Source of the DNA: a virus
Virus genome (UHGV): UHGV-0172517
Length of the DNA: 29,893 nt
Reading direction: 5' to 3' (one strand)
In this document: one piece after another, positions 1-29,893 of the stretch
How positions within the stretch are numbered: the first letter of the stretch is position 1
Layout: each line of letters begins with the position of its first letter
Translations under genes and position numbers: made by a program
Notes under the pieces: model-generated
The model's input: only the letters and a program-made list of their open reading frames with translations
Database searches by the model: none
Told to the model about the DNA's origin: nothing

Positions 1-155
1 AAGATCACTACGGAGTGCCCGTCAGAGTCATTCGTTGGGAGCCGGAAACACAACGAGTTATCTACCTCCGCGAAGGCTATGAGCATGAGTGCTTCAGCCC
101 GCTCGAACAGTTTCGTCGTAAATTCAGGGAAATAGAGGTCGGTCATGAGCACTAA
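1..155 (+). CDS. 3' end of an upstream CDS (partial, start outside window); function unknown
   Basis: Frame 3 reads through to a TAA at about 153-155 with a plausible globular C-terminal peptide (…[44 protein letters not shown]) and overlaps the next start by ~11 nt, a coupling-type overlap. Frame 1 is an alternative ending near 135. Confidence 0.3.
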
Positions 156-1086
156 ATTAACCGGCTATGTATGGGATGGTTGCGCTGCGTCAGGCATGAA
201 ATTATCCAGCGTGGCAATTATGGCCCGCCTGGCTGATTTCAGTAATGACGAAGGTGTGTGCTGGCCATCAATTGAAACCATTGCCCGTCAGATTGGCGCG
301 GGGATGAGTACCGTCAGAACGGCTATCGCACGGCTGGAAGCAGAAGGCTGGTTAACGCGTAAGGCGCGTCGCCAAGGTAACCGCAATGCGTCGAATGTTT
401 ATCAGCTTAACGTTGCGAAGCTTCAGGCAGCGGCATTTTCTCAACTGTCAGATTCTGACCCGTCAAAATCTGACGCATCAAAATCTGACCCGTCAAAATT
501 TGATGCGTCGAAATCTGGCAAAAAAGCGGTTTTTCACCCGTCAGAATCTGGCGGGGATCCGTCAGTAAAATCAAAACATGATCCGTCAGATAAAAAAACT
601 TCTCGTCCGGACGCTTCGCAACCGGACACGCAGACGGCTGAACAGGAGTTTTTAACTCGCCATCCTGATGCGGTTGTATTCAGCCCTAAAAAGCGCCAGT
701 GGGGAACGCAGGATGATTTGACCTGCGCACAGTGGCTCTGGAAAAAAATCATCGCCCTGTACGAGCAAGCCGCCGAATGTGACGGCGAGGTGGTTCGTCC
801 CAAAGAACCGAACTGGACAGCCTGGGCAAACGAAATTCGCCTGATGTGTGTGCAGGATGGTCGTACTCATAAACAAATCTGCGAGATGTACAGCCGCGTC
901 AGCCGCGATCCGTTCTGGTGCCGTAACGTGCTCAGCCCGTCGAAGCTGCGGGAAAAATGGGATGAGCTTTCCCTGCGCTTATCGCCGTCCGTAAGCACGT
1001 ACACCGAAAAACGCGAAGACCCGTACTTCAAATCCAGTTACGACAACGTGGACTACAGCCAGATCCCGGCAGGATTCAGGGGGTGA
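145..1086 (+). CDS. O: Lambda O-like replication initiator (distinct N-terminal DNA-binding domain, repeat linker, O-type C-terminal domain)
   Basis: 313 aa ORF with SD-like GAGG upstream. C-terminal segment WANEIRLMCVQDGRTHKQICEMYSRVSRDPFWCRNVLSPSKLREKWDEL closely resembles the lambda O C-terminal domain as I recall it (WANDIRLMRERDGRNHRDMCVLFRWACQDNFWSGNVLSPAKLRDKWTQL). The central SDPSKSDASKSDPSKFDAS linker is encoded by iteron-like DNA repeats. Confidence 0.8.
   Translation: MSTKLTGYVWDGCAASGMKLSSVAIMARLADFSNDEGVCWPSIETIARQIGAGMSTVRTAIARLEAEGWLTRKARRQGNRNASNVYQLNVAKLQAAAFSQLSDSDPSKSDASKSDPSKFDASKSGKKAVFHPSESGGDPSVKSKHDPSDKKTSRPDASQPDTQTAEQEFLTRHPDAVVFSPKKRQWGTQDDLTCAQWLWKKIIALYEQAAECDGEVVRPKEPNWTAWANEIRLMCVQDGRTHKQICEMYSRVSRDPFWCRNVLSPSKLREKWDELSLRLSPSVSTYTEKREDPYFKSSYDNVDYSQIPAGFRG
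447..600. repeat. Candidate replication origin: iteron array inside the O-like gene followed by an A/T-rich tract
   Basis: Seen directly: ~15-bp direct repeats tctgacccgtcaaaa / tctgacgcatcaaaa / tctgacccgtcaaaa / tttgatgcgtcgaaa, each with internal dyad TGAC..GTCA, then aaaaaagcggttttt and further CCGTCAG repeats with A-runs. Architecture parallels ori-lambda, which lies within gene O. Confidence 0.6.
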
Positions 1087-1088
1087 TC

Positions 1089-1577
1089 ATGAGTCTGTTA
1101 AATGACGTTCAGAAATTCATTGAAGCCCATCCGGGGTGTACTTCCGGAGACATTGCGGATGCTTTTGCAGGTTACTCACGGCAGCGCGTTCTGCAGTCAG
1201 CAAGCAAGTTACGTCAGAGTGGGCGTGTGGCTCACCGTTGTGAAGGAGATACACGCAGACATTTCCCGCGCCTGACTGAGAGAGCGCAGGAACCGGAACC
1301 ACAACCAGTTCGTGAAACCAGACCTGTGCGCAATTTCTATGTCGGCACTAACGATCCCCGGGTGATTTTGTGCCTGACCCGCCAGGCGGAAGAACTGGAG
1401 TCCAGGGGCTTATACCGTCGTGCTGCAACGGTGTGGATGGCGGCATTCCGTGAAAGCCACTCCCAGCCAGAACGAAACAATTTTCTGGCGCGTCGTGAGC
1501 AGTGTTTACGGAAAAGCAGCAAGCGCGCTGTATCGGGTGATGAGTGGTATCTGTCAGGGAATTACGTGGGGGCTTAA
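1089..1577 (+). CDS. Putative regulator: Ren-like winged-helix N-terminus with PerC-family-like C-terminal motif
   Basis: ORF track gives 1083..1577 from GTG; ATG at 1089 with AGGGGG upstream is the more likely start. C-terminal LESRGLYRRAATVWMAAF…RREQCL matches the PerC/Pch signature (LE.GLWRRAA..W … CL) as I recall it; N-terminus patterns like lambda Ren. Occupies the position after O where lambda has P and ren. Confidence 0.5.
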   Translation: MSLLNDVQKFIEAHPGCTSGDIADAFAGYSRQRVLQSASKLRQSGRVAHRCEGDTRRHFPRLTERAQEPEPQPVRETRPVRNFYVGTNDPRVILCLTRQAEELESRGLYRRAATVWMAAFRESHSQPERNNFLARREQCLRKSSKRAVSGDEWYLSGNYVGA

Positions 1578-2230
1578 TGAGTAATAAATATTGCCAGACG
1601 CTGGTGGAACTGCGGAACAAACCAGCCCATGAACTGAAGGAAGTGGGTGATCAGTGGCGCACGCCGGACAACATTTTCTGGGGAATTAACACCCTGTTTG
1701 GCCCGTTTGTTCTGGATCTGTTCACTGACGGTGATAACGCCAAATGTGCTGCGTATTACACGGCGGAAGACAACGCGCTGGCGCATGACTGGTCAGAACG
1801 TCTTGCGGAGCTTAAAGGGGCTGCCTTTGGTAATCCCCCATACAGCCGCGCCAGTCAGCATGAGGGGCAATACATCACCGGCATGCGTTACATCATGAAA
1901 CATGCCAGTGCCATGCGTGATAAGGGTGGGCGCTATGTTTTCCTGATCAAAGCTGCCACCAGCGAAGTGTGGTGGCCGGAAGATGCAGATCATATTGCTT
2001 TTATTCGCGGGCGTATTGGTTTTGAACTGCCTGCCTGGTTTATCCCGAAGGATGAGAAGCAGGTGCCGACAGGCGCTTTCTTCGCTGGTGCTATTGCTGT
2101 TTTCGACAAGACCTGGAAGGGACCGGCAATTAGCTACATCGGGCGCGATGAACTTGAGGCATGTGGTGAGGCGTTTCTGGCGCAGGTTCGCCAGCAGGCG
2201 GAAAAACTGGTCAGGGAGATGGCGGCATGA
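1577..2230 (+). CDS. Phage N6-adenine DNA methyltransferase (Dam-like, orphan)
   Basis: NPPY catalytic motif (AAFGNPPYSR) typical of N6-adenine MTases. ATG at 1577 overlaps the upstream stop (TAATG); the ORF track's upstream Met at 1544 is probably not the start. Confidence 0.85.
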   Translation: MSNKYCQTLVELRNKPAHELKEVGDQWRTPDNIFWGINTLFGPFVLDLFTDGDNAKCAAYYTAEDNALAHDWSERLAELKGAAFGNPPYSRASQHEGQYITGMRYIMKHASAMRDKGGRYVFLIKAATSEVWWPEDADHIAFIRGRIGFELPAWFIPKDEKQVPTGAFFAGAIAVFDKTWKGPAISYIGRDELEACGEAFLAQVRQQAEKLVREMAA

Positions 2231-2553
2231 CGACGTTAACTCAATGCCAGCAGCAGGTGCTGGATATGCTGATTTCTTATCAGAAAGAACGTGGCTTCCC
2301 GCCAACCAATCAGGAGGTGGCAACCATGCTGGGATACCGTTCGGTGAATGCAGCGGTGGAGCATCTTCGCGCACTGGAGAAAAAAGGCGTCATCACGATA
2401 AAGCGTGGCGTGGCCCGGGGGATAACGCTTCATACCGCGGTGAAGGACGACGACAGCGAGGCGGTCGGGATTATCCGCGCACTGCTTGCCGGTGAGGAAA
2501 ACGCAAGGCTGCGTGCAACCCACTGGTTACATGAGAGGGACCTGAAAGTATGA
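2227..2553 (+). CDS. LexA-like winged-helix DNA-binding protein (LexA N-terminal domain only, no S24 peptidase domain)
   Basis: 108 aa; QQVLDMLISYQKERGFPPTNQEVATMLGYRSVNAAVEHLRALEKKGVITI resembles the LexA N-terminal DNA-binding domain ([50 protein letters not shown], from memory). ATGA start/stop overlap with both neighbours. Confidence 0.75.
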   Translation: MTTLTQCQQQVLDMLISYQKERGFPPTNQEVATMLGYRSVNAAVEHLRALEKKGVITIKRGVARGITLHTAVKDDDSEAVGIIRALLAGEENARLRATHWLHERDLKV

Positions 2554-2939
2554 AGCTGATCCTGCCTTTTCCGCCCAGCGTGAACACGTACTGGAGACAC
2601 CCCAACAAAGGGGCGTTTGCTGGTAAGAGCCTGATAAGCGCGGCGGGGCGAAAATTCCAGAGCGCGGCGTGCGCAGCAATAGTTGAGCAGTTACGTCGTC
2701 TGCCGAAACCAACGTCGGCACCTGCTTCAGTGGAGATCGTGTTATTTCCTCCGGATAACCGGATCCGCGATCTGGACAACTATAACAAGGCGCTGTTTGA
2801 CGCCCTGACCCACGCGGGTGTGTGGGAAGACGACAGTCAGGTGAAAAGAATGCTGGTGGAGTGGGGACCGGTTATCCCGGAAGGGAAGGTCGAGATCACT
2901 ATCAGTAAGTACGAGAAAACGGCGGGTGCAGCCGCCTGA
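2550..2939 (+). CDS. rusA: RusA-family Holliday junction resolvase
   Basis: 129 aa; N-terminal LPFPPSVNTYWRH and the DLDNYNKALFDALT acidic motif are typical of RusA; size matches (~120-130 aa). Start overlaps upstream stop. Confidence 0.85.
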   Translation: MKLILPFPPSVNTYWRHPNKGAFAGKSLISAAGRKFQSAACAAIVEQLRRLPKPTSAPASVEIVLFPPDNRIRDLDNYNKALFDALTHAGVWEDDSQVKRMLVEWGPVIPEGKVEITISKYEKTAGAAA

Positions 2940-2958
2940 TCAAGAGGAGAAACGAAGT

Positions 2959-3768
2959 ATGAATAATCTGATGGTCATTGATGGTATTGAAGTTCGTCGT
3001 GATGCTTATGGGCGTTACAGCCTGAACGATCTGCATCGCGCAGCAGTAGCATCTGGTGCAAATGCCAGAACCAAGGAGCCGGGGAAGTTTCTTTCCAGCC
3101 AACAAACTGTTGAGCTTGTTCATGAATTGACCAACACCCAGAATTTGGGTGTTGACCCGGTGAGTGTGATTCATGGGGGAAATGAACGGGGAACTTATGT
3201 CTGCAAGGAACTGGTGTATGCCTATGCAATGTGGATCAGCCCGTCATTCCATCTGAAGGTGATCCGTACTTTCGATATGGTAACCAGCGCACCGGAAAAA
3301 TTATCCGGACAGGCTGCTGACAAGATGCAGGCTGGTGTGATTCTGCTGGACTTTATGCGCCGGGAGTTAAACCTGTCTAACTCATCTGTGCTTGGGGCCT
3401 GTCAGAAACTCCAGGAGGCTGTTGGCTTACCGAATCTGGCACCGCGCTATGCCATTGATGCTCCTGCTGATGCACACGATGGCTCAAGTCGCCCGACACT
3501 GTCACTGAGTGCACTGCTGAAACAGTATGGTATCCGCCTGACGGCTAATCAGGCATATCACCAGATGGTGAAGCTGGGGATCGTCGAGCAGCGCGAACGA
3601 TACAGCCGTACCGCGATTAACAACATCAAAAAATTCTGGTCGCTGACAGCGAAAGGCTGCATGTTCGGCAAGAACATCACCAGTCCCGCAAATCCGCGCG
3701 AGACGCAGCCGCATTTCTTCGAATCCCGATTCCCTGAGCTGTTAAAGCTGCTCGATACCGTTCATTGA
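2959..3768 (+). CDS. KilA-N domain protein (Roi/antirepressor-like)
   Basis: ATG at 2959 preceded by AAGAGGAGA SD; the ORF track's upstream Met at 2926 is unlikely. N-terminal ~100 aa (MVIDGIEVRRDAYGRYSLNDLHRAA…GGNERGTYVCKELVYAYAMWISPSFHLKVIRTFD) fits a KilA-N DNA-binding domain. Confidence 0.8.
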   Translation: MNNLMVIDGIEVRRDAYGRYSLNDLHRAAVASGANARTKEPGKFLSSQQTVELVHELTNTQNLGVDPVSVIHGGNERGTYVCKELVYAYAMWISPSFHLKVIRTFDMVTSAPEKLSGQAADKMQAGVILLDFMRRELNLSNSSVLGACQKLQEAVGLPNLAPRYAIDAPADAHDGSSRPTLSLSALLKQYGIRLTANQAYHQMVKLGIVEQRERYSRTAINNIKKFWSLTAKGCMFGKNITSPANPRETQPHFFESRFPELLKLLDTVH

Positions 3769-3769
3769 G

Positions 3770-4765
3770 GTGACCGTGAGAGCACTACTGACCCCTGAAA
3801 TTGCCCCGCGTATGGGGATCGTATTGTTCAGACCAGGTTCAGAGCTGATGCCCCTGTTTATGCAGGGGCGTGTCCTGCTGGAGCCTGAGCCGGAACGTTA
3901 TTCATCTTTCGCCAGTGGTGCCGTTCCGGCGGCATCACAACCGCTGGCGGATGATCCTGCCGTTCGGGCCGTGTTCCGCAATGAGGCAGTGATCCGTCGT
4001 GCTGGTGGAGTGGAATGTCTTGAAAGCTGGTTACTTCGTGAAAAAGGCTGCCAGTGGCCTCATTCCGACTGGCACAGCGAGAACATGACCACAATGCGAC
4101 ACGCTCCGGGTGCAATCCGTCTGTGCTGGCACTGCGATAACCAGCTGCGCGATCAGTTCACGGAACGGCTGGAATCAATGGCAACGGATAACTGTGCCCG
4201 CTGGGTGTTATCTGTTGTGCGCCGTGATCTCGGTTTTGATGATAGTCACGTTGTGACAATGCCGGAACTGTGCTGGTGGCTGGTTCGTAATGACCTGGCT
4301 GATGCCTTACCGGAAAGTGCAGCCCGTAAGGCACTGAGATTACCGAAGCCTGTTGTGCCGTCTGTCACCCGGGAGAGTGACCTTGTTCCTTCGGTTCCTG
4401 CCACCAGCATTATCCAGGATAAAGCGAAAAAGGTGCTGGCGCTGAAAGTGGATCCAGAGTCGCCGGAGTCTTTTATGTTACGCCCAAAACGTCGCCGCTG
4501 GGTTAATGAAAAGTACACGCGCTGGGTTAAGACACAGCCGTGTGCATGTTGTGGAAAGCCTGCTGATGATCCCCATCACCTGATAGGCCACGGTCAGGGT
4601 GGAATGGGTACAAAAGCGCATGACCTCTTTGTGTTGCCTTTGTGCAGAAAGCATCACGACGAGCTGCATGCGGATACCGTGGCATTTGAAGAGATGTATG
4701 GTTCCCAGCTGGAGCTGATATTTCGTTTTATCGATCGTGCGCTGGCAATAGGCGTACTGGCGTAA
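3770..4765 (+). CDS. DUF968 (YdfU-like) protein with C-terminal HNH-like Cys/His motif
   Basis: 331 aa ORF; C-terminus CACCGKPADDPHHLIGHGQGGMGTKAHDLFVLPLCRKHHDELH carries an HNH-like metal-binding pattern; resembles the Qin prophage YdfU family, which precedes Q. Start codon (GTG 3770 versus internal ATGs) is uncertain. Confidence 0.7.
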   Translation: MTVRALLTPEIAPRMGIVLFRPGSELMPLFMQGRVLLEPEPERYSSFASGAVPAASQPLADDPAVRAVFRNEAVIRRAGGVECLESWLLREKGCQWPHSDWHSENMTTMRHAPGAIRLCWHCDNQLRDQFTERLESMATDNCARWVLSVVRRDLGFDDSHVVTMPELCWWLVRNDLADALPESAARKALRLPKPVVPSVTRESDLVPSVPATSIIQDKAKKVLALKVDPESPESFMLRPKRRRWVNEKYTRWVKTQPCACCGKPADDPHHLIGHGQGGMGTKAHDLFVLPLCRKHHDELHADTVAFEEMYGSQLELIFRFIDRALAIGVLA

Positions 4766-4778
4766 GTGGAGAACGAGC

Positions 4779-5531
4779 ATGAACCTTGAAGCCTTACCAA
4801 AATATTACTCCCCAAAATCTCCAAAATTGAGCGATGACGCACCGGCGACAGGCTCAGGTGGTTTAACGATTACGGATGTGATGGCTGCGCAGGGGATGGT
4901 GCAGTCGAAAGCACCGCTTGGGTTTGCCTTATTCCTGGCAAAAGTTGGTGTTCAGGATCCTCAATTTGCGATTGAAGGTCTGCTCAATTACGCGATGGCA
5001 CTGGATAACCCGACATTGAACAAATTGAGTGAAGAAACCCGGTTACAGATCATCCCTTACCTTGTGAATTTTGCCTTTGCTGATTATTCCAGGTCTGCGG
5101 CAAGTAAGGCTCGCTGTGAGCATTGTGCTGGTACTGGATTTCATAATGTATTGCGCGAAGTGGTGAAACACTCCAGAAGCGGGGAATCTGTTATCAAGGA
5201 AGAGTGGGTGAAGGAACTATGTCAGCATTGTCATGGTAAGGGAGAAGTCAGCACAGCGTGCAGAGGGTGTAAGGGTAAAGGTATTGTCCTGGATGAAAAA
5301 AGGACCCGGCTTCATGGCACGCCTGTTTATAAGATTTGTGGGCGTTGCAATGGAAATCGGTTTAGCCGTTTACCAACCACACTGGCGCGGCATCATGTCC
5401 AGAAGCTGGTACCAGACCTGACGGATTATCAGTGGTACAAAGGATATGCAGATGTCATTGATAAACTGGTGACAAAGTGCTGGCAGGAAGAAGCATATGC
5501 TGAGGCGCAATTAAGAAAAGTGACGAGATAA
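4779..5531 (+). CDS. Q: Late-gene antiterminator Q (lambda Q family, QuuQ-like, with extra Zn-binding CxxC motifs)
   Basis: 250 aa; GGAGA SD 7 nt upstream. N-terminus YSPKSPKLSDD…TDVMAAQGM resembles lambda Q (HSPKSPMMSD…TDVMAAMGM, from memory); multiple CxxC pairs. Sits immediately upstream of the lysis cassette. Confidence 0.8.
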   Translation: MNLEALPKYYSPKSPKLSDDAPATGSGGLTITDVMAAQGMVQSKAPLGFALFLAKVGVQDPQFAIEGLLNYAMALDNPTLNKLSEETRLQIIPYLVNFAFADYSRSAASKARCEHCAGTGFHNVLREVVKHSRSGESVIKEEWVKELCQHCHGKGEVSTACRGCKGKGIVLDEKRTRLHGTPVYKICGRCNGNRFSRLPTTLARHHVQKLVPDLTDYQWYKGYADVIDKLVTKCWQEEAYAEAQLRKVTR

Positions 5532-5559
5532 ATGATTTTCGCCGAAGATGGCGACATGA

Positions 5560-5600
5560 TTCTTGCATTTTTCAAAAAATTTGGTTAGGATTCTCCTAAC
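5560..5600 (+). promoter_or_regulatory. Candidate late promoter (PR'-like) and qut region
   Basis: TTGCAT (-35), 17-bp spacer, TAGGAT (-10) about 30 nt downstream of the Q stop, overlapping a small dyad ttaggattctcctaa. Position mirrors lambda PR'. Confidence 0.35.
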
Positions 5601-5635
5601 GATGGGCTTTGTGTGTCTACCGTTGATAATCTTCA

Positions 5636-5662
5636 AGAAACCGCCACCGAGCGGTTTTTTAT
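5636..5662 (+). terminator. Hairpin plus T-run (tR'-like candidate)
   Basis: gaaaccgc-caccgag-cggtttttt: a 7-bp stem followed by six T residues, ~40-60 nt downstream of the candidate late promoter. Confidence 0.4.
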
Positions 5663-5819
5663 TGATGTCAATTGTGTTTTTAAGGCTCTCCTTCCTTAAA
5701 GTGTGTTGTACAAAAAACTGGCAGCCAGCTACGCTCATTTTGAAAAAGTGACACCCTTCAATGTTTCTTTTGAATGGAATTGCTACCCATAAATCTCTAT
5801 CAAAAACAGGAGAGCATAT

Positions 5820-6062
5820 ATGGTGGATCGTTGTTCTGTTTGTGAGCAGTCATTAAGTTATTCACGAGAAGTTGAACAAGATGGCGTTGAATATAAATCT
5901 TGCCCAAAATGTTCTGCTGATGCCGGAGTGCACGTTTTTTATAAAACAATAGACTTTGGTTATAGGGATATGGGAGACGGAAGGCATATCGTTCAGTCAT
6001 GGTGTCCGGCTTGTCGTTCTGGTGAAAAACCTTCTATACCACCAGCATTTAAATGTTGTTAA
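5820..6062 (+). CDS. Small Cys-rich putative zinc-ribbon protein (moron; function unknown)
   Basis: 80 aa ORF with strong SD AGGAGAG 5 nt before the ATG; CxxC pairs at residues 5/8, 28/31, 62/65 and a terminal CC; AT-rich relative to flanks; followed by its own terminator. Confidence 0.55.
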   Translation: MVDRCSVCEQSLSYSREVEQDGVEYKSCPKCSADAGVHVFYKTIDFGYRDMGDGRHIVQSWCPACRSGEKPSIPPAFKCC

Positions 6063-6079
6063 CTCAATGAATTATAAAA

Positions 6080-6108
6080 AGAGGCTGCCTGTGGGCGGCC
6101 TTTTTTGT
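6080..6108 (+). terminator. Rho-independent terminator downstream of the small Cys-rich ORF
   Basis: aggctgcc-tgtg-ggcggcct, an 8-bp stem with one G-U pair, followed by tttttt. Confidence 0.6.
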
Positions 6109-6193
6109 GCACTACGCAACTTTTGCGACTCAGCGCTATAACCAGCTTCTTTCCCTTCACTCGTTGCACTTCCGATAACCGGAGGTGGGAATT

Positions 6194-6535
6194 ATGAAAA
6201 TGCATAACGATCCTCATTCCTGGTCTGACTTACTTGAATTGTTACAGAGCTGGTGGCGTGGAGACACACCGCTGGGCGCAGTAATTATGTCGATCGTTAT
6301 GGCTGGCTTGCGCATTGCCTATTTTGGCGGTGGTGGTGGCTGGAAGCGAAAAACGCTCGAGATTTTGCTCTGCGGCGCTCTGACGCTGACTTTTGCATCC
6401 GCTCTTGAGTATGTCGGATGGCCTAAATCGCTTTCTGTTGCCATTGGTGGTGGTGTTGGGTTGATCGGTGTCGATGCTATTCGTGGGGCTGCAATGAGAG
6501 TAATCGGTAACAAGTTCGGTGGCTCTAAGGAGTAA
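6194..6535 (+). CDS. Class I (lambda S-type, three-TMD) holin with Met-Lys-Met dual-start motif
   Basis: ORF track starts at GTG 6185; ATG at 6194 (GGAGG SD ~9 nt upstream) then Lys and a second ATG at 6200. Three hydrophobic segments and a charged C-terminus; topology and the MKM motif parallel lambda S107/S105. Immediately upstream of R. Confidence 0.8.
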   Translation: MKMHNDPHSWSDLLELLQSWWRGDTPLGAVIMSIVMAGLRIAYFGGGGGWKRKTLEILLCGALTLTFASALEYVGWPKSLSVAIGGGVGLIGVDAIRGAAMRVIGNKFGGSKE

Positions 6536-6538
6536 TTT

Positions 6539-7015
6539 ATGCAGGTACTAAATTCCCAGCGTAAAGCTTTCCTCGATATGTTGGCGTGGTCAGAAGGAAC
6601 GGATAACGGGCGACAGCCAACCCGCAATCACGGCTACGACGTTATTGTAGGTGGTGAGTTATTCACGGATTACTCCGATCACCCTCGCAAACTTGTCACG
6701 CTAAACCCCAAACTCAAATCAACAGCAGCCGGACGTTACCAGCTTCTTTCCCGTTGGTGGGATGCCTATCGTAAGCAGCTTGGCCTGAAAGACTTCTCTC
6801 CAAAAAGCCAGGACGCTGTTGCACTGCAGCAGATTAAGGAGCGTGGCGCTTTACCGATGATTGATCGCGGTGACATCCGTCAGGCAATCGACCGTTGCAG
6901 CAATATCTGGGCTTCACTGCCGGGCGCTGGTTATGGCCAGTTCGAGCATAAGGCTGACAGCCTGATTGCAAAATTCAAAGAGGCTGGCGGAACGGTCAGA
7001 GAGATTGAGGTATGA
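6539..7015 (+). CDS. R: Endolysin R (lytic transglycosylase)
   Basis: 158 aa; sequence …[57 protein letters not shown]… matches lambda R almost residue for residue as I recall it; AAGGAG SD. Confidence 0.95.
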
Positions 7016-7479
7016 GCAGAGTCACCGCGATTATTTATGCTCTGGTTATCTGCATCATCGTCTGCCTGTCGTGGGCGGTCAATCATTACCGTGATAACGC
7101 CATCGCCTACAAAGAACAGCGTGATAAAAAAGTCAGTGAGCTGAAGCAGGCGACCGCCACCATTACTGACATGCAGATGCGTCAGCGTGATGTTGCTGCG
7201 CTCGATGCAAAATACACGAAGGAGTTAGCTGATGCGAAAGCTGAAAATGATGCTCTTCGGCGCAAGCTTGATAATGGTGGTCGGGTGCTCGTCAAAGGAA
7301 AATGCTCTGTGCCATCCTCAGCCGAAACCTCCAGCGCCTCCGGCATGGGCAATGATGCCACCGTCGAACTCTCTCCAGTTGCTGGACGAAACGTTCTCGG
7401 TATCCGGGACGGAATCATCAGAGACCAGACAGCACTGAGAACGCTTCAGGAATATATCAGGACGCAATGCCTTCGATGA
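7012..7479 (+). CDS. Rz: Spanin inner-membrane subunit Rz (i-spanin)
   Basis: 155 aa; N-terminal [30 protein letters not shown]… and …[30 protein letters not shown] match lambda Rz; the C-terminal third diverges from lambda. ATGA overlap with R. Confidence 0.9.
7232..7438 (+). CDS. Rz1: Spanin outer-membrane lipoprotein subunit Rz1 (o-spanin), embedded in the +1 frame of Rz
   Basis: 68 aa ORF wholly inside Rz; AAGGAG SD 7 nt upstream; [21 protein letters not shown]… carries a lipobox (VVGC) and a Pro-rich mature region ([11 protein letters not shown]), like lambda Rz1. Confidence 0.85.
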
Positions 7480-7651: not shown

Positions 7652-7678
7652 TAGCCTCGTATTCGCGGGGCTTTTTAT
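7652..7678 (+). terminator. Candidate rho-independent terminator downstream of the lysis cassette
   Basis: gcctcg-tattcg-cggggc hairpin with one G-U pair, followed by ttttt. Confidence 0.4.
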
Positions 7679-13306: not shown

Positions 13307-14606
13307 TCTCCCGCATATTGCCAGCATGGCTTTTAATGAGCCGCTGATGCTTGAACCCGCCTATGCGCGGGTTTTCTTTTGTGCGCTTGCAGGCCAGTTT
13401 GGGATCAGCCGCCTGACGGATGCAGTATCCGGCGACAGCCTGACTGCCGGAGAGGCACCCGCGGCGCTGGCGTTATCCGGTGATGATGACGGACCACGAC
13501 AGGCCCGCAGTTATCAGGTCATGAACGGCATCGCCGTGCTGCCGGTGTCCGGTACGCTGGTCAGCCGGACGCGGGCGCTGCAGCCGTATTCGGGAATGAC
13601 CGGTTACAACGGCATTATCGCCCGTCTGCAACAGGCTGCCAGCGATCCGATGGTGGACGGCATTCTGCTGGATATGGACACACCGGGCGGGATGGTGGCG
13701 GGAGCATTTGACTGTGCTGACATCATCGCCCGTGTGCGAGACATAAAACCGGTATGGGCGCTGGCCAACGACATGAACTGCAGTGCAGGTCAGCTGCTTG
13801 CCAGCGCCGCCTCCCGGCGTCTGGTCACGCAGACCGCCCGGACAGGCTCCATCGGCGTCATGATGGCTCACAGTAATTACGGTGCTGCGCTGGAGAAACA
13901 GGGCGTGGAAATCACGCTGATTTACAGCGGCAGCCATAAGGTGGATGGCAACCCCTACAGCCATCTACCGGATGATGTCCGGGAAACACTGCAGTCCCGG
14001 ATGGATGCAACCCGCCGGATGTTTGCACAGAAGGTGTCGGCATATACCGGCCTGTCCGTGCAGGCTGTGCTGGATACCGAGGCTGCAGTGTACAGCGGTC
14101 AGGAGGCCATTGATGCCGGACTGGCTGATGAACTTGTTAACAGCACCGATGCGATCACCGTCATGCGTGATGCACTGGATGCACGTAAATCCCGTCTCTC
14201 AGGAGGGCGAATGACCAAAGAGACTCAATCAACAACTGTTTCAGCCACTGCTTCGCAGGCTGACGTTACTGACGTGGTGCCAGCGACGGAGGGCGAGAAC
14301 GCCAGCGCGGCGCAGCCGGACGTGAACGCGCAGATCACCGCAGCGGTTGCGGCAGAAAACAGCCGCATTATGGGGATCCTCAACTGTGAGGAGGCTCACG
14401 GACGCGAAGAACAGGCACGCGTGCTGGCAGAAACCCCCGGTATGACCGTGAAAACGGCCCGCCGCATTCTGGCCGCAGCACCACAGAGTGCACAGGCGCG
14501 CAGTGACACTGCGCTGGATCGTCTGATGCAGGGGGCACCGGCACCGCTGGCTGCAGGTAACCCGGCATCTGATGCCGTTAACGATTTGCTGAACACACCA
14601 GTGTAA
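13287..14606 (+). CDS. C: Head protease / minor capsid protein C (ClpP/S49-like)
   Basis: GTG start at 13287 preceded by GAGGAGGAGAAG; 439 aa as in lambda C; overlaps the B 3' end by 20 nt. The ORF track's upstream Met at 13152 is not the start. Confidence 0.93.
14001..14606 (+). CDS. nu3: Scaffolding protein Nu3 (in-frame internal start within C)
   Basis: Internal ATG at 14001 (MDATRRMFAQ…) in the C frame with shared stop, corresponding to lambda nu3. Confidence 0.8.
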   Translation: MDATRRMFAQKVSAYTGLSVQAVLDTEAAVYSGQEAIDAGLADELVNSTDAITVMRDALDARKSRLSGGRMTKETQSTTVSATASQADVTDVVPATEGENASAAQPDVNAQITAAVAAENSRIMGILNCEEAHGREEQARVLAETPGMTVKTARRILAAAPQSAQARSDTALDRLMQGAPAPLAAGNPASDAVNDLLNTPV

Positions 14607-16031: not shown

Positions 16032-16049
16032 ATGGCCCTTCGGGGCCAT
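16032..16049 (+). other. Perfect stem-loop with UUCG tetraloop just after the E stop
   Basis: atggccc-ttcg-gggccat: a 7-bp perfect stem. It contains the spurious upstream ATG (16032) that the ORF track used for FI. Confidence 0.5.
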
Positions 16050-24374: not shown

Positions 24375-27300
24375 ATGGGTAAAGGCAGCAGTAAGGGGCA
24401 TACCCCGCGCGAAGCGAAGGACAACCTGAAGTCCACGCAGCTGCTGAGTGTGATCGATGCCATCAGCGAAGGGCCGGTTGAAGGTCCGGTGGACGGATTA
24501 AAAAGCGTGCTGCTGAACAGTACGCCGGTGCTGGACAGTGAGGGGAATACCAATATCTCCGGCGTCACGGTGGTGTTCCGGACCGGTGAGCAGGAGCAGT
24601 CACCGCCGGAGGGATTTGAATCCTCCGGCTCCGAGACGGTGCTGGGTACGGAAGTGAAATATGACACGCCGATCACCCGGACCATCACGTCGGCAAACAT
24701 CGACCGTCTGCGCTTTACCTTCGGTGTACAGGCACTGGTGGAAACCACCTCAAAGGGGGACCGGAATCCGTCGGAAGTCCGCCTGCTGGTTCAGATACAG
24801 CGTAATGGTGGCTGGGTGACGGAAAAAGACATCACCATTAAGGGCAAAACCACCTCGCAGTATCTGGCCTCGGTGGTGGTGGATAACCTGCCGCCGCGCC
24901 CGTTCAATATCCGGATGCGCAGGATGACGCCGGACAGCACCACAGACCAGCTGCAGAACAAAACGCTCTGGTCGTCATACACCGAAATTATCGATGTGAA
25001 ACAGTGCTACCCGAACACGGCACTGGTCGGCGTACAGGTGGATTCGGAGCAGTTCGGCAGCCAGCAGGTGAGCCGTAATTATCATCTGCGCGGGCGTATT
25101 CTGCAGGTGCCGTCGAACTATAACCCGCAGACTCGGCAATACAGCGGTATCTGGGACGGAACGTTTAAGCCAGCATACAGCAATAACATGGCCTGGTGTC
25201 TGTGGGATATGCTGACCCATCCACGCTACGGCATGGGGAAACGTCTTGGTGCGGCGGATGTGGACAAATGGGCGCTGTATGTCATCGGCCAGTACTGCGA
25301 CCAGTCAGTGCCGGACGGCTTTGGCGGCACGGAGCCGCGCATCACCTGTAATGCGTACCTGACCACACAGCGCAAGGCGTGGGATGTGCTCAGTGATTTC
25401 TGCTCGGCGATGCGCTGTATGCCGGTATGGAACGGGCAGACGCTGACGTTCGTGCAGGACCGACCGTCGGATAAGGTGTGGACCTATAACCGCAGTAATG
25501 TGGTGATGCCGGATGATGGCGCGCCGTTCCGCTACAGCTTCAGCGCCCTGAAAGACCGCCATAATGCCGTTGAGGTGAACTGGATTGACCCGGACAACGG
25601 CTGGGAGACGGCGACAGAGCTTGTTGAAGATACGCAGGCCATTGCCCGTTACGGTCGTAATGTCACGAAGATGGATGCCTTTGGCTGTACCAGCCGGGGG
25701 CAGGCACACCGCGCCGGGCTGTGGCTGATTAAAACGGAACTGCTGGAGACGCAGACCGTGGATTTCAGCGTGGGTGCTGAAGGGCTTCGCCATGTACCGG
25801 GCGATGTCATTGAAATCTGCGATGATGACTATGTCGGTATCAGCACCGGTGGTCGCGTGCTGGCGGTGAACAGCCAGACCCGGACGCTGACGCTCGACCG
25901 TGAAATCACGCTGCCATCCTCCGGTACCACGCTGATAAGCCTTGTTGACGGTCAGGGTAATCCGGTCAGCGTGGAGGTCCAGTCCGTCACCGACGGCGTG
26001 AAGGTGAAAGTGAGCCGTGTTCCTGACGGCGTTGCTGAATACAGCGTGTGGGGGCTGAAGCTGCCGACGCTGCGCCAGCGCCTGTTCCGCTGTGTGAGTA
26101 TCCGTGAGAACGACGACGGCACGTATGCCATCACCGCCGTGCAGCATGTGCCGGAAAAAGAGGCCATCGTGGATAACGGGGCGCACTTTGACGGCGACCA
26201 GAGCGGCACGGTGAATGGTGTCACGCCGCCAGCGGTGCAGCACCTGACCGCCGAAGTCACCGCAGACAGCGGGGAATATCAGGTGCTGGCGCGCTGGGAC
26301 ACACCGAAGGTGGTGAAGGGCGTGAGCTTCCTGCTCCGTCTGACCGTAACAGCGGACGACGGCAGTGAGCGGCTGGTCAGCACGGCCCGGACGACGGAAA
26401 CCACATACCGCTTCACACAACTGGCGTTGGGGAACTACAGGCTGACAGTCCGGGCGGTAAATGCGTGGGGACAGCAGGGCGATCCGGCATCGGTATCGTT
26501 CCGGATTGCCGCACCGGCAGCGCCGTCTCGGATTGAGCTGACACCGGGCTATTTTCAGATAACCGCCACGCCGCATCTTGCGGTTTATGACCCGACGGTA
26601 CAGTTTGAGTTCTGGTTCTCGGAAAAACGGATTGCGGATATCAGGCAGGTTGAAACCAGCGCGCGTTATCTTGGTACGGCACTGTACTGGATAGCCGCCA
26701 GTATCAATATCAAACCGGGCCATGATTATTACTTTTATATCCGCAGTGTGAATACTGTTGGCAAATCGGCATTCGTGGAGGCTGTTGGCCAGCCGAGTGA
26801 TGATGCATCCGGCTATCTGGATTTTTTCAAAGGAGAGATAGGGAAAACCCATCTGGCTCAGGAGTTGTGGACGCAGATTGATAACGGTCAGCTTGCGCCT
26901 GACCTGGCTGAAATCAGGACGTCCATTACGGATGTCAGCAATGAAATCACGCAGACTGTCAATAAGAAACTGGAAGACCAGAGTGCGGCGATCCAGCAGA
27001 TACAGAAGGTTCAGGTTGATACAAATAATAACCTGAACAGCATGTGGGCTGTGAAGCTGCAGCAGATGCAGGACGGACGCCTTTATATCGCGGGTATTGG
27101 TGCCGGTATTGAGAACACCCCTGACGGCATGCAGAGTCAGGTGCTGCTGGCGGCGGACAGGATTGCGATGGTTAATCCTGCGAATGGCAACACAAAGCCG
27201 ATGTTTGTTGGTCAGGGCGATCAGATATTCATGAACGAAGTGTTCCTGAAATATCTGACGGCTCCCACCATTACCAGCGGCGGTAATCCTCCGGCATTTT

Positions 27301-27854
27301 CCCTGACACCGGACGGGCGGCTGACGGCGAAAAATGCCGATATCAGCGGTAACGTGAATGCGAACTCCGGGACGCTCAACAACGTCACGATTAACGAGAA
27401 CTGCCGGGTTCTGGGAAAACTGTCCGCGAACCAGATTGAAGGCGATCTCGTTAAAACGGTGGGCAAAGCTTTCCCCCGGGACTCCCGTGCACCGGAGCGG
27501 TGGCCATCAGGAACCATTACCGTCAGGGTTTATGACGATCAGCCGTTTGACCGGCAAATTGTTATCCCGGCGGTGGCATTCAGTGGCGCTAAACATGAGC
27601 AAGATCATACTGATATCTACTCCTCATGCCGTCTGATAGTGCGGAAAAACGGTGCTGAAATTTATAACCGTACCGCGCTGGATAATACGCTGATTTACAG
27701 TGGCGTTATTGATATGCCTGCCGGTCACGGTCACATGACGCTGGAGTTTTCGGTGTCAGCATGGCTGGTAAATGACTGGTATCCCACAGCAAGTATCAGC
27801 GATTTGCTGGTTGTGGTGATGAAGAAAGCCACCGCAGGCATCAGTATCAGCTGA
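24375..27854 (+). CDS. J: Central tail fibre / host specificity protein J with a divergent C-terminal receptor-binding region
   Basis: 1159 aa (lambda J is 1132 aa); the N-terminal ~800 aa match lambda J as recalled ([24 protein letters not shown]…); the C-terminal ~340 aa are homologous but clearly diverged. Confidence 0.93.
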
Positions 27855-27873
27855 ATTTTATAACCCCAATACG

Positions 27874-27897
27874 GGCGTCAGAAATGACGCCTTTTTT
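27874..27897 (+). terminator. Rho-independent terminator after J
   Basis: ggcgtca-gaaa-tgacgcc: a perfect 7-bp stem with GAAA loop, followed by tttttt. Confidence 0.75.
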
Positions 27898-27921
27898 ATT
27901 GCAGAAAAGCGAGAGGTAATT

Positions 27922-28521
27922 ATGCGTAAATTATGTGCTGTTATTCTGTCCGCAGTAGTCTGGCTGGTTGCCGCTGGTACGCCAGCGAGCGCAGCAGAGC
28001 ATCAGTCCACACTAAGCGCCGGGTATCTTCAGACCTATACTGATATGCCAGGCAGTGATGACCTGAAGGGCATTAACGTGAAATACCGTTATGAATTTAC
28101 GGACACGCTGGGGCTGGTGACGTCATTCAGTTATGCCAATGCCAAAGATGAGCAAAAAACGCATTACAGCGATACCCGCTGGCATGAAGATTCCGTGCGT
28201 AACCGCTGGTTCAGCATGATGGCGGGGCCATCTGTACGCGTGAATGAATGGTTCAGTGCTTATGCGATGGCAGGTGTGGCTTACAGCCGTGTTTCGACGT
28301 TCTCCGGGGATTATCTCCGCGTAACTGACAACAAGGGGAAAACGCACGATGTGCTGACCGGAAGTGATGACGATCGCCACAGCAACACGTCTCTGGCGTG
28401 GGGAGCTGGCGTGCAGTTTAACCCGACCGAATCCGTGGCCATTGATATTGCTTATGAAGGCTCCGGCAGTGGCGACTGGCGCACTGACGGTTTCATCGTG
28501 GGTGTCGGTTATAAATTCTGA
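27922..28521 (+). CDS. lom: Lom-like outer membrane beta-barrel protein (Ail/Lom/PagC/OmpX family)
   Basis: 199 aa; N-terminal signal peptide (MRKLCAVILSAVVWLVAAGTPASAAE); conserved GINVKYRYE and C-terminal DIAYEGSGSGDWRTDGFIVGVGYKF shared with lambda Lom; the rest is diverged. GAGAGG SD. Confidence 0.9.
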   Translation: MRKLCAVILSAVVWLVAAGTPASAAEHQSTLSAGYLQTYTDMPGSDDLKGINVKYRYEFTDTLGLVTSFSYANAKDEQKTHYSDTRWHEDSVRNRWFSMMAGPSVRVNEWFSAYAMAGVAYSRVSTFSGDYLRVTDNKGKTHDVLTGSDDDRHSNTSLAWGAGVQFNPTESVAIDIAYEGSGSGDWRTDGFIVGVGYKF

Positions 28522-28547
28522 TTAGCCAGGTAACACAGTGTTATGAC

Positions 28548-28575
28548 AGCCCGCCGGTTCAGGCGGGCTTTTTTG
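28548..28575 (+). terminator. Rho-independent terminator after lom
   Basis: agcccgcc-ggttca-ggcgggct: a perfect 8-bp stem followed by tttttt. Confidence 0.75.
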
Positions 28576-28585
28576 TGGAGTGGAT

Positions 28586-29893
28586 ATGGCAGCAGTAAAA
28601 ATCTCAGGTGTGCTGAAAGATGGTGCGGGAAAACCAATACAGAACTGCACTATTCAACTGAAGGCAAAGCGTAACAGCACCACGGTACTGGTGAACACGG
28701 TGGCCTCTGAAAATCCGGATGAAGCCGGGCGTTACAGCATGGATGTTGAGTATGGCCAGTACAGCGTCACCCTGCTGGTTGAAGGTTTTCCGCCTTCACA
28801 TGCCGGGACCATTACCGTCTATGAAGGCTCCAGACCAGGTACGCTGAATGATTTTCTCGGTGCCATGACGGAAGATGATGTCATGCCGGAGGCATTGCGT
28901 CGTTTTGAGGCAATGGTGGAAGAAGTGGCACGCAACGCCGAAGCCGCCTCTCAGAGCGCAGCGGCGGCAAAGAAATCCGAAACTGCAGCGGCATCATCAA
29001 AGAACGCGGCGAAAACCTCAGAAACGAATGCAGCTAACAGCGCACAGGCGGCAGCGTCCTCGCAGACTGCATCGGCAAACTCCGCGACAGCAGCCAAAAA
29101 ATCAGAAACCAACGCGAAAAACAGCGAGACAGCCGCAAAGACGAGCGAAACCAACGCAAAGTCCAGCCAGACGGCAGCGAAAACCAGCGAAACGAATGCC
29201 AAAGCCAGCGAAACTGCGGCAAAAAACAGTCAGGATGCAGCGGCCCAAAGCGAGAGTGCCGCAGCTGGTTCTGCAAGTGCGGCAGCTAATAGCCAAAAAG
29301 CTGCAAAAACCAGTGAAACTAACGCAAAGACGAGTGAAACAAAAGCAGCAGCCAGCGAGATAGAAGCAACGTCAGCCGCAACAAGAGCAGAGAATGCAGC
29401 CCGGATTGCAGAAGATGCCGCTGATCCTGCTTCAGTCCCTCCGCTTCCTGATATCTGGCTACCCTTGAATGATTCTCTGGAAGCGATAACAGGGTATGCC
29501 CCGGGCTATAAAACAATAACCATCGGCAGTGATGAAATAACAATGCCTGTTAATGGCATATGCCAATTTAGCCGCGCTTCATCAGCAACGTATATTGATA
29601 AGTCCGGGCATATTACCGTGGCAGGGAATAACGTTCCTCGTTTTGAAAAATATGGTTTGCTGATAGAGAATCAGCGAACAAACATGTTCGTAAATAGTTT
29701 TAATCCTGATGCGTGGAATAAAAGCGGTGGTATATCTGTAACATCATCAACAGATGAATTTGAGTTTAAATATGGACGTTTCACAGTAGGAAGCGACATA
29801 GCAGGAACGACAACAGGGAGAAATATATGCACAGTTGCTGGTAATAAAGGCATAGATGTGACTGGCGATGATCAGTACAGTAAAGGTCCGTAT
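28586..29893 (+). CDS. stf: Side tail fibre protein Stf-like (5' portion; runs off the window end)
   Basis: Hand-translated open frame of 436 codons with no stop to the window end, so absent from the ORF track. N-terminus MAAVKISGVLKDGAGKPIQNCTIQLKAKRNSTTVLVNTV…GRYSMDVEYGQYSV matches lambda Stf; then an Ala/Ser/Thr-rich repeat region and an AT-rich distal part. Confidence 0.8.
   Translation, partial: MAAVKISGVLKDGAGKPIQNCTIQLKAKRNSTTVLVNTVASENPDEAGRYSMDVEYGQYSVTLLVEGFPPSHAGTITVYEGSRPGTLNDFLGAMTEDDVMPEALRRFEAMVEEVARNAEAASQSAAAAKKSETAAASSKNAAKTSETNAANSAQAAASSQTASANSATAAKKSETNAKNSETAAKTSETNAKSSQTAAKTSETNAKASETAAKNSQDAAAQSESAAAGSASAAANSQKAAKTSETNAKTSETKAAASEIEATSAATRAENAARIAEDAADPASVPPLPDIWLPLNDSLEAITGYAPGYKTITIGSDEITMPVNGICQFSRASSATYIDKSGHITVAGNNVPRFEKYGLLIENQRTNMFVNSFNPDAWNKSGGISVTSSTDEFEFKYGRFTVGSDIAGTTTGRNICTVAGNKGIDVTGDDQYSKGPY
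28960..29345 (+). repeat. Imperfect tandem ~24-nt coding repeats (AKTSETNA-type octapeptides) within stf
   Basis: Recurring gcgaaaacctcagaaacgaatgca / gcgaaaaccagcgaaacgaatgcc / gcaaagacgagcgaaaccaacgca / gcaaaaaccagtgaaactaacgca units. Confidence 0.6.

Follow-up and report, generated by a model that had tools for sequence, protein, structure and literature searches.

The window, by which we mean the whole stretch of 29,893 nucleotides analysed here (UHGV virus genome UHGV-0172517), carries towards its 3' end a lom gene between the tail-tip/host-specificity gene J and the side-tail-fibre gene stf. The order J-lom-stf is that of lambda, with all three genes on the plus strand. Ahead of them this strand also carries Q, the holin, the endolysin and Rz, followed by the head and tail genes, which places lom inside the late operon. 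The features are as follows.

4779-5531, plus strand: Q antiterminator gene (PF03589 Antiterm, 180 bits)
6185-6535, plus strand: holin gene (PF05106)
6539-7015, plus strand: endolysin gene
7012-7479, plus strand: Rz gene (Rz-like spanin)
24375-27854, plus strand: tail-tip/host-specificity gene J, 1159 codons, the last ~160 of which (the receptor-binding end) diverge from lambda
27873-27897, plus strand: upstream terminator-like hairpin, GGGCGTCA-GAAA-TGACGCCT, with T6 at 27892-27897, 18 nt past the J stop codon
27922-28521, plus strand: lom coding sequence from the open reading frame list, ATG start, 199 aa plus stop
27922-27993, plus strand: signal peptide part of lom, residues 1-24 (MRK...TPASA), judged from the translation by eye
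27994-28518, plus strand: predicted mature Lom barrel, residues 25-199, to which homology to OmpX assigns eight strands and four loops (L1-L4)
28548-28574, plus strand: downstream terminator-like hairpin with T6, AGCCCGCC-GGTTCA-GGCGGGCT, 26 nt past the lom stop codon
28586-29893, plus strand: stf, cut by the end of the window, with an N-terminus 83% identical to that of lambda orf-401

Coding signals and protein family of lom

The window Lom matches the Pfam family Ail_Lom (PF06316) with 420.7 bits against a gathering cut-off of 23 bits, its 199 residues spanning all 199 profile positions. A further match is PHROG 108, 'Lom outer membrane protein' (E 2e-106). The protein aligns with the structure of lambda Lom (PDB 9wso chain C, E 5e-50) and, over residues 26-199, with the solved structures of OmpX and Ail (E about 1e-18). 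An earlier note on this DNA had described a lom-like outer-membrane barrel gene of the Ail/Lom family, and the Pfam, PHROG and OmpX/Ail matches bear this out. Every test that we ran placed the gene within the Ail/Lom family and the lambdoid lom locus, the eight-strand fold being predicted by homology. Minus-strand open reading frames within lom (85 aa at 28123-28380, and others) were rejected as genes, because the family match and purifying selection both point to the plus-strand frame.

A Shine-Dalgarno sequence, GAGAGG, can be read at 27911-27916 on the plus strand, 5 nt 5' of the lom ATG, and is invariant in 24 of 24 distinct upstream sequences. The N-terminus is MRKLCAVILSAVVWLVAAGTPASA followed by AEHQ, with cleavage predicted before AEHQ. 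By eye, a basic n-region (MRK) and a hydrophobic core of 16 residues can be made out here, with A-S-A just ahead of the predicted cleavage, and the stretch aligns with the signal region of lambda Lom, which ends in TPARA; the signal peptide claimed earlier stands on these two grounds. At the other end, the protein closes with ...VGVGYKF, in which GYKF resembles a beta-signal, and F199, Y197 and G196 are invariant among 18 aligned homologues. An aromatic C-terminus is usual for outer-membrane barrels and is the beta-signal for insertion by BAM.

The AlphaFold model of Lom, which had an 18-sequence alignment as input, is of low confidence (pLDDT 53, pTM 0.39). Foldseek on this model returned Ail and OmpX first, with Yersinia pestis Ail (3QRC/3QRA) at the top, at TM-scores of only 0.4-0.5. 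Because the model is poor, the topology used here rests on sequence homology to OmpX and Ail, and it makes L3 the longest loop (residues 130-154, 25 residues). Lom would be exported by Sec with removal of its 24-residue signal peptide, and BAM would insert it in the outer membrane as an eight-stranded beta-barrel of the Ail/OmpX type with four surface loops. These loops would be the working part of the protein, binding something outside the cell.

Flanking hairpins and transcription of lom

The stem of the upstream hairpin (27873-27892) has eight pairs; T27892 closes it as a G-U pair and is also counted in the T6. The downstream stem (28548-28569) likewise has eight pairs, seven of them G-C, and runs into T6. 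In a pattern scan the two were the best of five terminator-like sites in 27000-29893, a number not above chance (3.3 +/- 1.8 in shuffles). The upstream hairpin folds at -14.4 kcal/mol (z -3.9, 0/200 shuffles), and the downstream hairpin with its flanks folds at -23.6 kcal/mol (z -2.4, 4/200 shuffles).

Comparative conservation is stronger evidence for terminators than the site count, and it is decisive. We compared 157 related loci from IMG/VR, retrieved by searching with the Lom proteins of the window and of lambda. The hairpin in the J-lom spacer is always at the same place, and its stem varies between loci in a compensated manner (GGCGTC/GACGCC, GGCGCC/GGCGCC and GGCACC/GGTGCC). Across 24 distinct sequences from Lom classes 0, 1 and 3, 97.9% of the cells are paired and three pairs show compensatory double changes, while a control with slid partners gave 39-60% paired and almost no covariation. 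Every Lom length class has terminator-like sites on both sides of lom; among 153 loci there is one upstream in 152 and one downstream in 148. Lambda also has the downstream hairpin, in which the loop differs and one G-C pair has become G-U; its upstream hairpin is weaker than that of the window. Each Lom class that we examined keeps the terminator-lom-terminator layout, which is under selection. The earlier statement that the gene lies between two clean rho-independent terminators is confirmed by the folding, the compensatory changes and the recurrence across loci.

A minority of lom loci (L047, L048, L057, L060-L065, L069, L075 and others, and L123-L126 of class 3) have an alternative 3' junction, CAACAGACGCC... 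or CGGCAGATACAGC...; in these loci about 160 nt separate lom from stf, and only TTT follows the hairpin. An Rfam scan of 27400-28900 returned only sub-threshold chance matches, a eukaryotic lncRNA among them, and the best near-match, Trp_leader, lies on the terminator with 21.7 bits against a threshold of 41.

The upstream T-run ends at 27897, about 13 nt before the Shine-Dalgarno sequence and 24 nt before the ATG. As the Shine-Dalgarno sequence starts at 27911, there is no room for a promoter past the upstream terminator, and any promoter here would overlap it. Consensus-based scans, which are insensitive and could miss a weak or activator-dependent promoter, found no sigma-70-like promoter on the plus strand in 27000-27921 at 9 of 12 matches; relaxed to 8 of 12, the scan of 27300-27925 gave one poor candidate 290 nt upstream of lom, ahead of the terminator, and none that is credible. 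Nor is the G+C content of lom distinct (53.0%; window 54.3%, J 56.7%, stf 49.6%).

Other strong terminator-like hairpins with T-runs stand on the plus strand inside the late operon, at 7653-7672 after Rz and at 13353-13374 and 16032-16049 among the head and tail genes. Their position argues for general late read-through, and they are presumably passed by Q-modified polymerase. The lom terminator must be read through too, since the GGAG ribosome-binding site of stf (28577-28580) begins 3 nt past its T-run and the stf start lies 11 nt past the terminator. During lytic growth, Q-modified RNA polymerase would thus read through both terminators that flank lom. Without antitermination, in the prophage state, the two hairpins would isolate lom from neighbouring transcription. 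Because unmodified polymerase would be stopped by them, any lysogenic expression of lom would have to come from a weak or non-consensus start.

We read the gene as the canonical lom of a lambda-like E. coli prophage, encoding an exported outer-membrane barrel with functional loops and transcribed within the late operon by Q-dependent read-through, and we put the probability of this reading at roughly 0.88. The earlier note had concluded from the two terminators that lom is an independent transcription unit. This does not follow, because no promoter was found in the 600 nt upstream, lom lies in the late operon and stf needs read-through. The promoter search that the note had proposed as a check has now been run, and it gave no usable sigma-70-like site before lom.

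Less probably, lom would be an autonomous moron that has a promoter and a terminator to itself, is expressed constitutively from the repressed prophage and serves lysogenic conversion through adhesion or serum resistance. Both terminators are real and conserved, lom is listed with the genes that lambda transcribes in lysogens (PMC1151598, PMC7067206), and the lom of phi24B is expressed to the same degree whether the culture is lysogenic or induced (PMC3342100). Antibodies to LomW, the homologue of EHEC, lower adherence and colonisation (PMC6692519). The promoter scans and the roughly 13 nt left between the upstream T-run and the Shine-Dalgarno sequence speak against a promoter of its own, the base composition does not set lom apart from the phage, and Lom does not reach the score that NCBIfam requires of the serum-resistance equivalog Rck/PagC. 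The only homologues shown to be expressed in lysogens, those of lambda and phi24B, are of allelic classes other than that of the window: lambda Lom is 45% identical to the window Lom, and phi24B Lom, 244 aa by its published coordinates, presumably belongs to a class at 33% identity. Strong expression of lom late in infection is stated, with reference to Liu et al. 2013, in PMC9836094 and in PMC12366544. The moron reading is compatible with the late-operon explanation and does not exclude it. What deserves attention is that a terminator-lom-terminator layout is conserved and selected without a visible promoter, although lom is reputed to be expressed in lysogens.

Distribution, selection and mosaic structure

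Positions 27800-28650 of the window, covering the whole of lom and both terminators, are 100% identical in DNA to a locus of E. coli LR-62-2, where the lom coding sequence is annotated in RefSeq as WP_038431964.1, 'Ail/Lom family outer membrane beta-barrel protein'. The LR-62-2 prophage adjoins appY-ompT-envY, carries the DLP12-named genes nohD, essD, rrrD and ybcK-ybcO, and sits at the DLP12 position. Phages PhiR46_1 and 2G7b have lom genes 98-99% identical to that of the window, and Lom proteins of the window type occur at 84-99% identity in phage 434, 2G7b, PhiR46_1, BP-4795 and many Stx1/Stx2 phages. Family, position and even the exact sequence of the gene are already on record in RefSeq and in sequenced phages. 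DNA homologous to lom was found in 4745 of 5426 complete E. coli genomes (median number of places per genome two, maximum 14), and clusters of Lom proteins at 94% identity hold up to 24,859 members. The window lom belongs to the allelic class commonest in E. coli (199 aa; phages 434, 2G7b, PhiR46_1 and many Stx phages). It is an ordinary prophage gene, real and intact, with homologous DNA in most E. coli genomes.

The LR-62-2 prophage is 99.4% identical to the window over 7012-29287 and has no match over 1-7011; since the match ends there, we place a mosaic joint near 7012, at the endolysin/Rz boundary. Window 1-7011 encodes a replication-type HTH protein, a PerC-like activator, a Dam-family methyltransferase, a protein with a LexA DNA-binding domain, RusA, a KilA-N protein, DUF968, Q, the holin and the endolysin. 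At 29086-29347, stf contains 21/42-nt tandem repeats (about 3.4 copies of the 42-mer) that encode an Ala/Ser/Thr-rich side-tail-fibre stretch ('..AAKTSETNAK..'). The alignment to LR-62-2 breaks and overlaps in these repeats, with window 29120-29287 matched twice, which points to a difference in repeat copy number. In LR-62-2, stf is annotated as a truncated pseudogene.

All 112 related class copies of lom are intact, none of the 48 distinct Lom proteins from the first 80 loci has an internal stop codon, and dN/dS over 84 distinct class-A nucleotide sequences is 0.17 (Nei-Gojobori). The ratio is 0.17 in loops and strands alike, with no faster evolution of the loops (diversifying selection) within class-A lom. 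The gene is under purifying selection, and its surface loops are conserved rather than diversifying within the class. It is therefore highly improbable that lom is a decaying passenger gene or pseudogene without current function, even though its neighbour stf is annotated as broken in LR-62-2, some database lom alleles have in-frame deletions of 14-16 residues that remove parts of beta4-beta5, and many entries are partial; besides the stop codon count and dN/dS, the start codon, the Shine-Dalgarno sequence, the signal peptide and the C-terminal Phe are all intact. For the window copy we reject this reading on intactness and purifying selection, and the pseudogenes in related strains that the earlier note had considered did not appear among the 112 copies.

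An 8-bp direct repeat, TGGTTCAG, occurs inside lom at 28207-28214 and 28249-28256, 42 nt apart. Three Lom alleles of 183-185 aa from E. coli and Shigella dysenteriae (P0043, P0057 and P0097) lack exactly 14 codons between two WFS motifs, or 16 between two MAG motifs. As parts of beta4-beta5 are gone, these are probably dead alleles that arose by slippage.

Overall, the window Lom is 45% identical to lambda Lom, and the identity is unevenly spread over the OmpX-based segments. It is highest in L4 and beta8 (100% each), beta2 (91%) and beta7 (85%), reaches about 64% in beta5 and beta6, and falls to 46% in beta4, 45% in beta1 and 25% in beta3. Among the loops, L1 is 33% identical, with eight extra residues in lambda at the beta1/L1 boundary, L2 is 19% and L3 is 20% identical. 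The last 27 residues are those of lambda Lom except for two. The loop regions do differ from lambda Lom, as had been claimed (19-33% identity in L1-L3), and several strands, such as beta3 and beta4, diverge as much. Of the barrel ends, which had been called conserved, the C-terminal one is (beta7, L4 and beta8, 85-100%), and beta1, at 45%, is not. Likewise, the description of the gene as divergent is right relative to lambda but not in general: on Pfam Ail_Lom, lambda Lom scores 182.4 bits against 420.7 for the window Lom. It is lambda Lom that is the atypical allele, and the window allele is the mainstream type of E. coli prophages.

At the DNA level, the similarity to lambda falls into blocks, one of which begins inside lom.

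28430-28930, plus strand: DNA block shared with lambda at 85-95% identity (sliding identity), comprising the lom 3' end, its terminator and the first ~115 codons of stf

A block at about 27374-28430, which takes in most of lom and, in J, the final ~160 codons, is only 35-65% identical to lambda (L001) and is flanked on both sides by DNA that is 83-95% identical (27194-27400 and 28430-28930). Among Lom classes 0, 1 and 2 the last 96 nt of lom are 88% identical, whereas their cores are 48-62% identical. The conserved C-terminal end of lom is a DNA-level mosaic block and does not reflect protein constraint alone, and the receptor-binding end of J together with most of lom forms a cassette-like mosaic unit across two genes. 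This unit, the compensated upstream hairpin and the lack of a visible promoter are the points of note at this locus. Two chimeric Lom proteins (P0059 and P0071) have the first ~50 residues (signal peptide, beta1 and long L1) of a 207-aa class and the remainder of the window class, which indicates recombination within lom.

Function of Lom and comparison with known systems

The one activity that has been reported for any Lom at its native level is adhesion to epithelial cells of the host. In PMC1151598, lambda Lom is cited as involved in adhesion to buccal cells, and serum resistance is ascribed to Bor and not to Lom. Antibodies to LomW reduce adherence and colonisation, but LomW is described there as uncharacterised in function (PMC6692519). 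The best NCBIfam match of the window Lom is PRK15240, 'resistance to complement killing', at 120.7 bits against the cut-off of 258 for the Rck/PagC equivalog (NF011777), and it reaches 103.6 bits against a cut-off of 176 for the OmpX equivalog (NF006917). It is neither an Rck/PagC nor an OmpX equivalog. The family had been linked earlier to adhesion and serum resistance; adhesion is indeed cited for lambda Lom, while serum resistance belongs to other members of the family or to Bor.

Overexpressed lambda Lom protects against lambda-vir and not against T7, and kin or superinfection exclusion late in infection has been proposed (PMC12366544). Lom might accordingly be a factor of benefit to the phage, abundant late and blocking adsorption by sister phages, with loops matched to its own pair of J and receptor. 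The position of lom, always directly after the receptor-binding end of J, fits this proposal, as do the single block of divergence from lambda that takes in the J end and most of lom and an association between Lom class and J-end class. We nevertheless consider it unlikely. The association has exceptions and is confounded, since the two genes are neighbours; PADLOC-DB 2.0 gave no defence family at E <= 0.01 for either the window Lom or lambda Lom, and native lysogen levels of lambda Lom do not block lambda-vir (PMC12366544).

If exclusion were at work, the type of Lom would be expected to follow the receptor-binding end of J. Their pairing was examined in 146 loci clustered at 80% identity, with the last 150 aa taken as the J end. 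This gave four Lom classes and nine J-end classes, one of which is probably an artefact, as the upstream open reading frame picked there is not J. Class-A Lom proteins, 84-98% identical to the window Lom, occur with J ends of at least five clusters: J0 (84 loci), J1 (4), J2 (14) and three singletons. Conversely, three Lom classes, with 46-76% identity among them, are found next to J1 ends. Relative to the window, one locus (L037) has a Lom 98% identical and a J end 66% identical, and another (L046) has a Lom 96% identical and a J end 40% identical. This reassortment weakens a strict match between J and Lom, and it constrains the recent idea of Lom as a self-specific blocker of adsorption.

A more elaborate proposal would make the receptor-binding end of J and the variable lom core (about 27374-28430) a co-adapted cassette between conserved recombination flanks, with Lom a late adsorption blocker specific for the matching J and the upstream terminator keeping lom silent until Q antitermination. 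We give this little credence. Our preferred reading remains that of the canonical late-operon lom, with surface loops that would bind something outside the cell.

Among known systems, the moron concept goes back to Juhala et al. 2000 and was reviewed by Cumby et al. 2012, both as cited in PMC7067206. Like morons, lom is an accessory non-structural gene between two tail genes with a terminator directly downstream. Unlike them, it has no recognisable promoter of its own and no distinct base composition, and it has a terminator upstream as well; of the three moron features that can be tested by sequence, only the downstream terminator was found.

The Salmonella serum-resistance barrels Rck and PagC share the Pfam family of Lom. 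Complement resistance cannot be transferred to Lom by homology, because 120.7 bits is far below the cut-off of 258. OmpX of E. coli and Ail of Yersinia pestis are homologous over the whole of mature Lom, with the same predicted strand order and a C-terminal GYxF. They are about 25-29% identical to Lom, whose L2 and L3 are longer (L3 by about 15 residues relative to OmpX). Lom is carried by a phage and is no part of the chromosomal core, and it falls below the NCBIfam cut-off for the OmpX equivalog.

Lambda Lom (NP_040601.1; PDB 9wso chain C) shares with the window the J-lom-stf locus, the family, the architecture, the downstream terminator and the start of stf. It differs in its 45% identity, in the eight extra residues at the beta1/L1 boundary and in its score on Pfam Ail_Lom (182 against 421 bits). 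The entry 9wso holds two chains of lambda Lom sequence and may bear on what Lom binds. Because the lambda allele is atypical and the window type is what most E. coli carry, the results obtained with lambda Lom, on adhesion and on defence against lambda-vir, should not be transferred to the window type without a test.

The closest relatives are the lom loci of LR-62-2 (WP_038431964.1), PhiR46_1 and 2G7b. LR-62-2 differs in its truncated stf and in the lack of a match to the early/Q region (window 1-7011). At lom itself, all three have the same neighbours as the window, with J upstream and stf downstream, and nothing of substance differs.
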